Of a stretch of 64,000 nucleotides of DNA, positions 21,268 through 30,687 are shown piece after piece. How positions within the stretch are numbered: the stretch's first letter is position 1; every line of letters begins with the position of its first letter. The DNA comes from Desulfatiglandales bacterium (lineage in GTDB: Bacteria > Desulfobacterota > DSM-4660 > Desulfatiglandales > Desulfatiglandaceae). The notes under the pieces are model-generated. The model was not told the DNA's origin. It made no database searches and saw only the letters and a list, made by a program, of their open reading frames with translations. The DNA lies in the NCBI GenBank assembly GCA_963662465.1, contig OY759599.1:4960001-5024000 (forward strand), in the 5' to 3' direction. A program made the position numbers and the translations under genes.

Positions 21268-22806
21268 TCAGGAGTTTTCCGGATCAAAATCGAGCGGGCT
21301 TCTAATCTCTTTTGCCGGCATGCTTTTGATGACATGCGTATAGATCATCGTTGTCCGAACATCGCTATGCCCCAAGAGGTCTTGGATCGTTCGGATGTCG
21401 TAGTTGGCCTGCAACAGATGGGTCGCAAAACTGTGGCGAAAAGTATGCGCGGTAACGCGTTTATACAGTTTTGCCTTTCGTACGGCATCCCTGATGGCGC
21501 GTTGCACATGACTTTCATGGATATGATATCTTTTTTTTTCTCCCGTGTCCCTAACGGTGGTAAGGGAAAGGCCGGGGAAAACCCATTGCCAAGCCAATTC
21601 TTTGGCCGCATTTTTATATTTTTTATCCAACCGCCCCTTTAAGAAGGCGCCGGCGTACCCGACATTCAAATCCTTTTCATGCAAATCGGCGGCCACATCG
21701 AATTGCATACGGATTTCCGGTATGACCGTTTCCGGCAAAGGGACGGAGCGGTCTTTTTTTCCTTTACCGTCATGTACGGTCAGCATACAACCCTCGAGGT
21801 CGAAATCAGCAAGGCGAAGGTTGAGACATTCAAACAATCGTAATCCACAACCGTAGAGCAATTTCACGATGAGGTCATACGGATGGGAAAGATGCGTCAA
21901 AACCAGATCAATTTCCCGCCTCGACAACACCACCGGCCTATACGGTTTCTGCTTTGCTCTGACAACGTTCTTTATGTCGCCAGGTTCCCGTTTCATAACA
22001 TGACGGAAAAAAAACAACAAGGCATTGAATGCTTGATTCTGAGTTGAAGCGGAGACCTTTCTTTTCACAGCCAGAAATGTCAAAAAGGCTTTGTAATCTT
22101 CGTCGGTGACCGCTGCCAACGTTTTGGATTTGGTGAAGACCTGAAACTTGCGGAGCCACATTGAATAGCTCTTCAATGTCTTGGGAGAGTACTGCAGAAC
22201 CATGATTTCATCACGGAGGCCATCAAAGGCGAATTTCCAGCTTGTGCCGATTTCAACCGGTTGATCTGATGTTTGCCGTTTATTGCAAATAGTTTTGTCA
22301 AAAAACCCAGAAGGTTTTCGATCCGCCTCTTGACAGGTAGTTTTCGATATCTCCTCTGCGAATTTTTGGTCCCCGAAACCCTGACAACCCGTCCGGGAGG
22401 GCGGGACGTCCACAGGCCCGGCTTGAACGGCATTTGAACGTTTCGCGGCGGACGCGGCAAAAACAGTTGTATCGTTATCTGGAAAGATCTCGGCCTTTTT
22501 GACGGACGTATTCTTTCGAATTGTCACATATTCGGCAACCGAGGGCCTTTCTTTGACGGTTTCATAATACAAAGAAACGGCATCCGAGGCTTGTCTGATT
22601 TGATAATCTTTCTGTTTTTTCTGATGGCGTTTTTCGATAAAATGACTGAGGCTTTCATGTTTTGAGACCGGATGATAATATTTTTGGCAAAAATCCCAGT
22701 AAAATCGAAGCCATTTTTTGTAATATGCCTGAAATCGCTTTTAAACGGGTTTCCTATCCAGAAAATGCTGAAAACGCGCTATGATGTCTGGCGGAACTGG
22801 AATCAT
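21268..22806 (-). pseudogene. intI: Long-form integron integrase with an in-frame TAA at codon 22; a TTG-started 434-aa product remains possible
   Basis: LYGCGLR, GKGKKDR, integron-specific insertion KKYKNAAKELAWQWVFP, HTFRHSFATHLL, LGHSDVRTTMIYTH. The upstream frame reads MIPVPP...RKPV*KRFQAYYKKWLRFYWDFC in frame after a GGAGG RBS. Confidence 0.85.
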
Positions 22807-27441: not shown

Positions 27442-27732
27442 ATGAGTATTCAATTTGAATGGGACAAAAATAAAGCGAAAACGAATCTCAAGAAACACAA
27501 AGTTAGTTTTGATGAAGCAAGTACTGTTTTCAGTGACCCATTAGCTTTGATATTTGATGATGAAGAACACTCTACGTCAGAAGAGTTACGTGAAATCATC
27601 ATCGGAAATTCTGAGAAAAGACGACTGTTATTGACCAGTTTCACAGAACGACTAGAAGATATTGTGCGGATAATTAGCTCACGTTTAGCGACAAACCATG
27701 AACGAAAGGATTATGAAGAAAATGCCTACTAA
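27442..27732 (+). CDS. brnT: BrnT family toxin (integron cassette)
   Basis: FEWDKNKAKTNLKKHKVSFDEA...RIISSRLATNHER. Confidence 0.92.
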   Translation: MSIQFEWDKNKAKTNLKKHKVSFDEASTVFSDPLALIFDDEEHSTSEELREIIIGNSEKRRLLLTSFTERLEDIVRIISSRLATNHERKDYEENAY

Positions 27733-27985
27733 TTCAGCAATTGACGATTTAAAACCAGAATATAAGTTTGATTATAGTAAAGCACGTCCGAATCGTTTTG
27801 CTAAACGAGTCACTGAGGATAGTGTTATTGTGGTGCTTGACCCTGATGTAGCACAGGTTTTTACTTCTGCGGAGGCAGTCAATGCTGTTTTACGAGCGCT
27901 CATTCAAAACATGCCTAATGTTACTATTCCAGCACAAGTTACAGAGGTTCTCACGGCAAACAAACATCATGGTTCAATCCGCTAA
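27713..27985 (+). CDS. BrnA-like antitoxin
   Basis: LKPEYKFDYSKARPNRFA, VVLDPDVAQVF; overlaps the toxin; stop codon lies within attC R''. Confidence 0.8.
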   Translation: MKKMPTNSAIDDLKPEYKFDYSKARPNRFAKRVTEDSVIVVLDPDVAQVFTSAEAVNAVLRALIQNMPNVTIPAQVTEVLTANKHHGSIR

Positions 27986-28673
27986 CCAAGCGCTCCTCGC
28001 GCCGAGGTAAGCCCGAAACCTTGGGAACCCGCGTAAATCGGGATGAAATTGGTTATTGTTATCCAGTGGGTGATCGCGGAAAGCGAAAGTCCCACCCGAG
28101 CAGAGGTTAGCCACCAGCTCGGTAGTGAAGTCCACGTGCAAACCGGGTAACCGGCGTACGGAGCTGGACGGAACGAGAATCCAGGCTGCGTATTGAGCCC
28201 CGAAAAATGTATAGTTGTGGTCATTGGATAACCCTGTGAAATCAGGGGAACGCCGACGCTTTGGAGCAAGCGGAAGACAGCAGACCTTGATGCGCCATGG
28301 CGAGTGTTGAGGTTGCCACCGGGGTCTTAGACCAGGGCATGGATTCAAATGGATAGCTCGGGAACTCGGGAGAACCAAAAGTTTCCTTGTTTAGAGACCC
28401 GGAAGATGAGGGGCGCCGGGAGATTAAGAGCCCTGGCGTTTGCGGGCTGCTTTCACCTGCAAATGAGTCGCAAGAAACACAAAGAAAGAAAGCAGGCAGG
28501 GTATCAGGTGTGGACAGCGAAAAGCGAACGTGCCTGAGAGGGACTTTTGGTAGTCTTAGCGGAACATAGTACCGATGGCGCCGAGGATGGTGCTGGGAAG
28601 GTGGGGAAGTGGCGCCCAAGCGACCCACTGTAGGGAAGGTGAAGCAGGGTATAACGTTTTTCTGATAGGAACT

Positions 28674-30374
28674 ATGGAAGACACTCAGAGGTCACAACCC
28701 ATATCAATGGAAAATCAGGAAATTGCGGAGCAGGTTGCCCAGAAGTCCGAAGAACCGAGTACACATGGTCTCCCCGTACTGGTCAGTGAATCAAGTCTTG
28801 CCCGGGTAGCAATACGGGGGATGGCCGATTCGCAAACGGTGTTCTCATCACTTGCGCATTGGACCGACTTTGATTTATTGAAAAAGTCATTCAAGGCATT
28901 GAGTAAGAATGAGTCAACCGGAGTTGATAGGATAACGGCGAAGGACTATGCTGTCGATCTTAATGAAAACCTCTATAAACTGTACGAACGGCTGCAAAGA
29001 GGGCAGTACGTTGCATCTCCGGTCAAGCGCATATGGGTGGACAAGGAAGGCGGTAAAAAGAGACCGATAGGGATTCCGGCGTTGGAGGACAAGATTGTCC
29101 AGAAAGCGGTGGCGACTTTGCTGGGGCTGGCTTACGAACCCTTGTTTTATGAAGTTTCCCATGGATTTCGGGAAGGTCACAGTCAACACCTGGCGCTGAA
29201 AGAACTTCGTGAAAAGTGTGCCGGTTTGAACATAAACTGGATTTTGAGCGCGGATATTACGGGACTATTTGACAATATAGATCACTCATTATTACGAGAA
29301 ATACTGCGTAAAAGGGTGAATGATGGCGGCATCCTGCGGCTAATCGGCAAGTGGTTGAACGCCGGGGTCGTGGAGGGTGACGAAACCATATACCCTGAGA
29401 AAGGAACGCCTCAAGGCGGGTTATGCAAAGCTTTGCATAACCCGCCTTATGCCAAGTTGCCGATTATGCAAAGTAAACCGCTAAAGCTACCAGATTTCCA
29501 ACACCTTCACTGAGTTTACTTTGCATAATATCACGGGTATCTCAAACTTGAAATCCAATTAAACGATGCAGCATCCTTGGTTTATTTTGGATAAAATGAT
29601 CTGGTTTTTTTCCGACAAATGATTTTGTGAGCTTTTCGCTCAGTCATCATTAGCAAAGATTATGCTAAGTAAATCAAAAAGAAACCCTTGAATTCCAATG
29701 CGTTTTATGGCTTACTTTGCATAATTACTTTCTTTGCATAAGGCGGCGTCATTTCACCGGTGCTGAGTAATATATTTTTGCACGAGGTGCTGGACGGCTG
29801 GTTTGTCAAAGAAGTTGAACCGAGGCTGAAGGGGAAGTGTTTTTTGGTCCGCTTTGCGGATGATTTCATAATCGGGTTTCAATTGAAGTCTGATGCTGAA
29901 CGGTTGATGGCAGTTTTGCCCAAGCGTTTTGAGAAATACAAGCTAAGCCTTCACCCGGGAAAGACCAGATTGATAGCCTTTGGAAGGCCAATGGCCGGTG
30001 CAAAGCGTGAGACCTTTGATTTCTTAGGTTTTACCTACTACTGGGGCAGGTCCTTAAAGGGGCGGTGGGTGATTAAGAAGAAGACGGCTGGTAAGCGTTT
30101 AAGGCGTTTTCTGAGTATGACGTGGAGTTGGTGTAAGGAGAGCCGCCATGATCCCATGAAGGAGCAGCATGAGATTTTATGCAGCAAACTTCGGGGGTTC
30201 TATCAATATTTTGGTGTACGCTCGAACTACAAAGCACTTGAAGTGGCGTATGAATACGCGATGAAGGCCTGGCGTTACTGGCTAAGCCGGAGGAGTTCCG
30301 ACGGCCTGGTGTTGTTTGCAGACCTGCAAAGGAGCCACCCACTGCCAATTCCGAAAATAGTCCACGGATTCTGA
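28674..30374 (+). pseudogene. ltrA: Group II intron reverse transcriptase/maturase disrupted at PQGG
   Basis: RPIGIPALEDK, SHGFR, GTPQGG|VISPVLSN, RFADD, FDFLGF. Removing 29420-29746 restores a 457-aa ORF with no endonuclease domain. Confidence 0.92.
29420..29746. mobile_element. Gene-less 327-bp element with TTATGC/GCATAA arms (RIT-like miniature element)
   Basis: Symmetric TTATGC (29447, 29464, 29660) and GCATAA (29523, 29719, 29736) sites; 36-bp perfect palindrome 29413-29448; AAGGCGG at both junctions. Confidence 0.8.
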
Positions 30375-30687
30375 AACCACTGGGGCAGCAAAGTTATTCG
30401 CCGGTCGGGGTGTCGCCTGGCTGGTTGATGGTCTGGTAAAAAGGACCTGAACCGAGAAACCGGATGAGGGAAATCTTCACGTCCGAATCTGCGGGGGGAG
30501 CGCCGGGCAACCGGTGCTTCTACCCGGAACCAGACGCCTGATACTTGGGCGGTCCTAGCGAGGGGGGCCGGAGGAGGCGCTGGTGAGCTTGTCGTTCCTA
30601 TAATGCACATCCTTTCGCTTGACTCCTTTGGAGATTTTTTCTAATCTCATGCTACAATCTACGCTTTTGCAAGGGGGGAATCGGATC

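Follow-up and report, generated by a model that had tools for sequence, protein, structure and literature searches.

The window, meaning the whole 64,000-nucleotide stretch of Desulfatiglandales bacterium DNA that was analysed, contains a group II intron whose reverse transcriptase (RT) gene is interrupted by an insert of 327 bp (Table 1). A ribozyme D1-D4 match (RF02005, 99.7 bits) lies upstream of the insert at 28086-28334, and TIGR04416 matches both RT halves, at scores under its cut-off because the halves are fragments. As originally predicted, the insert is gene-less and sits in the PQGG codons of the RT: removal of 327 bp yields the junction GTPQGGVISP and a 457-aa open reading frame (ORF) from the ATG at 28674. 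The reading frame of the RT 5' half extends into the insert and meets a stop at 29513, which leaves the window intron without a protein of its own. The core has 35% G+C and a longest stop-free frame of at most 33 codons. That 327 is a multiple of three is incidental, since the copies in another intron family measure 324-326 bp. Elsewhere in the window, an integron integrase scoring above the TIGR02249 cut-off lies at 21268-22572, a BrnT-type toxin-antitoxin pair precedes the intron at 27442-27985, and a multi-copy repeat of ~68 bp, which we take to be attC-like, directly follows the intron on its 3' side at 30529-30597.

Table 1. Features of the insert and its host intron, in window coordinates
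Feature	Position	Strand	Remarks
Host group II intron, approximate limits	27986..30529	+	Limits estimated by BLAST; insert within ORF
5' half of group II intron RT gene	28674..29414	+	Last codons Pro-Gln
Spacer s1, GGCGGG	29415..29420	+	Likely supplied by the element
Constant 20-bp palindrome, TTATGCAAAGCTTTGCATAA	29421..29440	no strand	Two back-to-back recombinase arms
Spacer s2, CCCGCC (reverse complement GGCGGG)	29441..29446	-	Target-type spacer inside the element
Core, 295 bp	29447..29741		
ritC-end module	29447..29579	-	Double arm, third arm inverted and 65 bp further on, decayed final ritC codons
Approximate deletion joint	29580..29617		Gap between two intact-element matches, core nt 134-171
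ritA-end module	29618..29741	-	Upstream region, third arm, terminal double arm
Spacer s3, GGCGGC	29742..29747	+	Gly-Gly codons of the intron itself
3' half of RT/maturase gene (VISP..., FADD)	29748..30374	+	

Recombination sites and assembly support

The mirror-symmetric ends described in the original prediction are all present. The TTATGC arms of the left end begin at 29447 and 29464 and the GCATAA arms of the right end at 29719 and 29736, each pair 17 bp apart, and the two 65-bp TTATGC...GCATAA spans occupy 29464-29528 and 29660-29724. T(A/T)ATGC sub-repeats have reportedly been noted in recombinase-in-trio (RIT) elements by Ricker in 2013. The terminal inverted arms share 79% identity over 38 nt, which agrees with the inverted repeat of ~28-34 bp with a flanking palindrome that characterizes RITs. 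The predicted 36-bp palindrome is perfect at 29413-29448, but only 20 of its 36 bp are constant among copies; sister copies carry perfect palindromes of 20, 30 or 36 bp, and the 20-bp part is identical in RIT lineages with other targets. Only two features extend it to 36 bp in the window: s1 and s2 are reverse complements of each other, and the Gln codon, CAA, shares its final AA with the arm. Three dif-like cores had been proposed; the middle one is indeed a full arm-6-arm site, while the outer two are hybrids of element and target.

The palindrome is genuine: neither chance nor an assembly artefact accounts for it, the latter check resting on contigs, none of those listed crossing the left junction of the window copy itself. 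The 8.16-Mb genome contains five perfect palindromes of at least 36 bp, three of which belong to this element, and the palindrome of a sister copy is spanned by one contig from run X2. In run X1, the core contig has a depth of 125.8 vs 38-47 in the single-copy flanks (~40), which fits three near-identical copies. Both runs possibly or probably derive from the source sample of the assembly. The circles and inversions that had been suggested did not turn up: X1 and X2 contigs, which drop rare forms, contain no circle, no inversion joint and no excised allele. Runs X3 and X8 show a 327-base skip that joins 29412 to 29740 with seven shared letters, which gives the empty allele the spacer GGCGGC. 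At window position 29712, X1 and X2 both have a loose end that leads into another element with the common terminal arms; its sequence is absent from this genome (G000) and may belong to a relative carried by a different organism in the sample.

Parent trios and copies in the genome

The insert is almost certainly a gene-less miniature derived from a RIT element. Over core nt 1-133, identity is 83% (133 nt) to the ritC end of the intact element L036 and 80% to that of L075; over core nt 172-295, it is 86% (125 nt) and 80% to the corresponding ritA ends, the alignments at the two ends being 123-133 nt long. Recombinase-encoding elements with homologous ends, which the prediction required, do exist. 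A decayed ritC remnant on the minus strand reads DAASFNWISSL, vs DAALLDWLSSL in RitC of L036. Judging from these alignments, approximately 3.1 kb comprising ritA, ritB and most of ritC is missing at the deletion joint. Intact trios in other genomes share the palindrome, the arms and the PQ/G codons of intron RTs (the slash marking the point of insertion) and occur in both orientations; together with the presence of one core in separate intron families, this bears out the proposal of a non-autonomous mini-RIT.

The three proteins of these trios belong to the Phage_integrase family, are encoded by overlapping genes and keep the R, HxxR(H), H and Y positions, with Y/D changes in the HxxR box of RitB. 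Grouping as RitA/B/C is based on comparison of the parent trio with a trio on pHG1 (RitA 34%, RitC 45% identity), whose end shows the same spacer-palindrome-spacer-arm order. Three adjacent, overlapping recombinase genes are found in L007, L036, L075 and others and are lacking in the window element, and cores of intact relatives are mostly 3.29-3.68 kb, close to the ~3.5 kb of RITs, vs 327 bp here. The window element, having no ORF, is therefore filed as a RIT derivative and not as a complete RIT. No fourth long ORF (250-aa floor) occurs in the intact elements examined.

The autonomous partner that had been expected in the host genome is missing from the assembly. None of its 58 Phage_integrase matches belongs to a cognate trio, the best RitC match reaching 36% identity vs 66-79% within the clade, and the genome's other trios have different arms (TTATGCCG, TTATGTTG and TCCAAAC). 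Without a cognate recombinase in the genome, present mobility is doubtful; its past movement was probably the work, in trans, of a cognate RitABC trio no longer present in the assembly. Miniatures and intact trios do coexist in each of two other genomes (G105 and G107). Full-length relatives of the window family of miniatures occur in this genome, G106 and G107 at 74-84% identity (74-81% in the latter two). Miniatures range from 272 to 551 bp and have unrelated middles, indicating repeated origin. MITE-type derivatives of insertion sequences arise by internal deletion, keep both ends and are moved in trans, with DDE ends and target duplication. The RIT miniatures resemble them in internal deletion with retention of the ends, in mobilization in trans and in repeated origin, but have tyrosine-recombinase sites and no DDE ends with target duplication.

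The genome carries eight copies of the element, every one at the PQ/GG codons of intron RTs, in three intron families; the 20-bp palindrome core is found at seven loci. The cores fall into three subtypes that are 80-84% alike. The window core is identical to that of the 3216k copy, which lies in a different intron family, and 98% identical to that of the 3338k copy in a third, which points to movement in trans. Near-identical introns at 292k, 3346k and 3350k share one 293-bp core, which is forward in the first and flipped in the other two, and a truncated copy at 2365k has a window-type core in flipped orientation; both orientations are thus represented. The spacers s1, reverse-complemented s2 and s3 read GGCGGG, GGAGGC and GGGGGT in the 3216k copy, GGCGGC, GGCGGG and GGCGGG in the 3338k copy, and GGCGGG, GGGGGT and GGCGGG in the 6842k copy. 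Four filled introns (292k, 3338k, 3346k and 3350k; G000:C1) show 2-4 differences over 900 bp downstream and 19-32 upstream, the latter largely within the intron's first 400 bases, a distribution that suggests 5' mosaicism among these copies.

In the commonest host intron family, six of six copies of one sub-lineage are filled vs none of five sister copies, which could reflect either a past burst, at a time when the genome still had a cognate trio, or transport of the element through retrohoming in trans. The same pattern, together with the restoration of the RT frame by precise excision, could be taken to indicate a domesticated on/off switch, in which excision or flipping of the element regulates retromobility. 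Such a role is very improbable: lineage-wide filling equally fits a parasite, the genome has no cognate recombinase, neither core orientation permits read-through, and no empty allele of the window intron exists in the genome or in the X1 and X2 contigs.

Spacers and the route of insertion

The palindrome lies beside the RT 5' half in 55 of 55 loci and beside the 3' half in none, and s2, which was left free in the search pattern, starts with GG in reverse complement in 125 of 126 metagenome matches. Metagenome contigs with a palindrome at both ends (L150, L160/161, L164/165 and L220) were excluded as possible collapsed repeats. Spacers were compared in 39 distinct complete RT-targeting elements, excluding L141, whose G run is one base short, L215, whose flank is not long enough, and L030, which has an interrupted end. 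With s2 reverse-complemented, all three spacers are equal in nine elements and all differ in 12; agreement is restricted to s1 and s2 in five, to s2 and s3 in five and to s1 and s3 in eight. The 'inverted target' s2, unlike both outer spacers in 20/39 elements, is a carried spacer and no copy of the present target, as a hairpin origin would have had it. The three 6-base spacers likely record earlier targets.

These figures bear on a hairpin or folded single-strand intermediate, integron-like, in which s1, the palindrome and s2 would form the stem and the inverted spacer would be copied from the target. The strand at the left junction does form a perfect stem (-63.5 kcal/mol, z -7.8), as any palindrome would, and s1 equals reverse-complemented s2 in 18/55 loci vs 2.4 when shuffled and in 42/113 vs 6.3. 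In Nielsen 2017 (PMC5737581), exonuclease-resistant RIT DNA with no mappable circle is described and hairpins are proposed; L010, a coreless palindrome-spacer-palindrome insert, would also accord with such a form. This route is nonetheless distinctly unlikely, given that s1 and s2 are non-complementary in 25 of the 39 complete elements and that all three spacers differ in 12, and an excess of s1/s2 matches would also result if a single intron family were visited again and again.

For 13 filled sites an empty allele could be identified: six among sister introns in this genome, the window site (X3 and X8), four in G108 and two in G106. The palindrome-distal spacer s3 equals the empty-site spacer in 13/13, and s1 is native in 7/12; the source of most of these alleles is a sister intron or another strain, and the cleanly informative cases number four of 13 (the 3338k copy, the window, L007 and L081), all agreeing. 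Outer spacers s1 and s3 differ in 22/39 complete elements, by up to three of six bases, with mismatches at positions 1-6 numbering 1, 0, 14, 6, 5 and 18. The sparing of positions 1-2 is confounded with conservation of the glycine codons. Among the matches listed, 59 GTDB loci with non-PQ targets, which include L041, probably a chance match, and a small number of RT loci that escaped the filter, show s1 equal to reverse-complemented s2 in 33 vs 1.4 when shuffled, with s1/s2 mismatches by position of 1, 5, 13, 9, 8 and 18.

Spacers follow the target class across lineages, GGNGGN at RTs, TTYTTN at an IS66 transposase and TAYGGN at a Y2 transposase (L116 skipped in this comparison and in the shuffled counts above), and the internal spacer s2 co-varies with target class as the original prediction had proposed to check. 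Covariation of this kind would be expected if spacers guided target choice through DNA pairing, a form of programmable insertion. There is strong reason to doubt such guidance, and it can be given hardly any weight: the s1/s3 differences speak against spacer-encoded choice, six bases are too few to specify one site in an 8-Mb genome, and trios with different targets differ in protein (RitA 25-35% identity between target classes, 66-75% within).

The observations are probably best explained by a two-site circle with strand-biased exchange, as in SE/Tn554 elements. A RIT element that was internally deleted and kept only its end sites would have entered the Gly-Gly codons of PQGG, truncating the RT gene. 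The element would leave as a circle in the order core end, spacer, palindrome, spacer, core end, which, the palindrome being symmetric, would present two back-to-back attachment sites that are equivalent. Recombination with PQ/GG could take place at either one, and after either exchange the palindrome would join the RT 5' half, with the core in either orientation; the spacer used in the exchange would become s1 and the unused one s2, the 'inverted target'. Exchange is predicted to be biased to the RT sense strand, with a cut just before the first G (between 29414 and 29415), so that the far junction would retain the target's six bases and spacer positions 3-6 could tolerate mismatches. Replicative resolution after a sense-strand cut would account for the spared positions 1-2 and for the native far spacer, and would parallel the fingerprint rule of SE/Tn554 elements (PMC10214605). 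Target choice would rest on protein recognition of the flanking codons, with no pairing of spacers.

An L020-type circle is predicted to give two products, and both occur in G108, as L081 and L141. L143 and L007 of the same genome are not one step away from such a circle and need in-place inversion or mismatch repair. In-place inversion is also the basis of another explanation, under which the element would integrate through a single attachment site, and the second orientation and the changing s2 would arise by later inverton-like flipping of the core. Spacers s2 and s3 do form inverted sites around the core, the identical core occurs in both orientations in near-identical introns (292k vs 3346k and 3350k), and the step from L007 to L081 fits a single inversion with a mismatched spacer. 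As a general account it is unlikely: inversion followed by replication should equalize s2 and s3, which differ in 25 of the 39 complete elements, and should sometimes leave a foreign s3, observed in 0/13; the X1 and X2 contigs, moreover, contain no inversion joint.

The plasmid record NZ_CP039728.1 contains an intact RT-targeting trio (L266) between two RT 3' halves, with no palindrome, an arrangement that fits recombination of the internal site with a second intron. The palindrome of the reciprocal product is absent from that record, and a plasmid BLAST of the element's end matched only NZ_CP039728.1. Retrohoming of the intron, and not the recombinase, may account for the spread of some copies.

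Coupling sequences of Tn916-type elements and Xer/dif cores consist of a 6-bp, potentially non-identical overlap between inverted recombinase arms. The present element shares 6-bp spacers between inverted arms with both, but its target spacer is always at one junction where this is testable, and arms occur four times per end region. Closer likeness exists to the SE/Tn554 elements of PMC10214605, which also combine several tyrosine recombinases with target specificity and make no true target duplication. In those elements a donor 6-bp spacer goes to one fixed junction and the target's 6 bp stay at the other, a rule that the present element may follow. The SE/Tn554 circle, copied out without leaving an empty site, has one attachment site and a Srap/TnpC-type helper, whereas two spacers surround a palindrome here, two orientations occur, and the trios examined have no such helper gene.

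Both the RIT family and its flanking palindrome are already in print, and the finding stays within this known family. Van Houdt 2012 (PMC3414803) gives RITs as ~3.5 kb long with a 28-9 bp inverted repeat and an overlapping palindrome, records insertions in a transposase gene and radC, and reports no convincing core or arm sites. Measured against PMC3414803, PMC5737581 and PMC8138268 (Smyshlyaev 2021), the parents are RIT-like in their ~3.45 kb, three overlapping tyrosine recombinase genes, terminal inverted repeats, one-sided palindrome and insertion in genes of other mobile elements. The miniature departs from the RITs described there in being gene-less and ~300 bp long and in targeting the PQGG codons of group II intron RTs, and the present elements do so in their three readable spacers, two orientations and visible core and arm sites. 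Literature searches gave no account of mini-RITs or of RIT insertion in intron RTs among the matches listed; Ricker 2013 may cover part of this. PMC10214605 (Mob DNA 2023) lists RIT movement as untested. A natural minimal donor of ~330 bp, a Pro-Gln/Gly-x codon consensus, a predicted cut and marked spacers make the RIT mechanism directly testable and provide a model for the movement of a poorly understood family. Relatives of the element occupy the same two-glycine-codon site in many bacteria.

The element is also an example of a mobile element specialized in disabling another, with eight intron RT copies affected in this genome. A wider reading, tentative and somewhat short of probable, is that RITs are codon-targeted hyperparasites with a two-faced circle, a 6-bp record of their last two targets and a module that lineages have retargeted. 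One invariant 20-bp palindrome would supply both attachment sites, single-strand exchange would write the spacer record, and separate lineages would each have turned this module on conserved codons, in intron RTs in some and in IS66 or Y2 transposases in others. Were this so, the 327-bp miniature would be a complete natural donor substrate for knockout of group II intron RTs across many phyla.

Distribution and related lineages

A GTDB scan with a palindrome-based pattern returned at least 115 stretches. Many of the matches listed are intact trios, in records labelled gamma-, beta-, alpha- and deltaproteobacteria and in other phyla, and the non-PQ targets are, among others, IS66 and Y2 transposases and a different RT motif. 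Closer to the host, the palindrome was found in 0/104 genomes of the family and 1/400 of the phylum, and the core in 0/208 of the order; many of these genomes are fragmented, so that these counts are no proof of absence, and the core search was insensitive (three candidates scored per genome, only three of the eight own copies listed).

The same 20-bp palindrome is present in L008, L028 and L038, which represent lineages targeting IS66 and Y2 transposase codons. Across these lineages the palindrome is better conserved than the inner arms, and the L028 trio is only 25-37% identical to RT-targeting trios. A further RIT lineage (L013 and L031), with a variant palindrome centre, lies at the PIGN motif of another RT class, its palindrome adjoining the 3' half of the target RT gene.

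The genome of the window also hosts four copies of an unrelated intact RIT (G000:C1 1582166-1585620, 2491k-2494k, 4393k-4401k and 7140k-7143k), which has its own near-palindrome and 6-bp spacers in the same layout. Three copies lie one way and one is flipped, the flipped copy carrying a foreign s2, CCATTA; the target reads DNNICER, presumably an IS66 transposase motif. A third trio (G000:C1 281932-285430 and 7045550-7051340) repeats the layout with a different 20-bp palindrome, AAATCCAAACGTTTGGATTT, and sits in genes of another RIT-like trio, a RIT targeting a RIT.

Palindrome-spacer-palindrome inserts without a core occur at L010:5001-5052, where the insert splits the PQGG codons of an intron RT, and at L053:5001-5052. 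The palindrome itself equals a pair of 10-bp termini placed end to end, a possible clue to how it arose. At G105:C1:5557185, an orphan palindrome with both spacers follows an RT 5' half and is fused to unrelated DNA.
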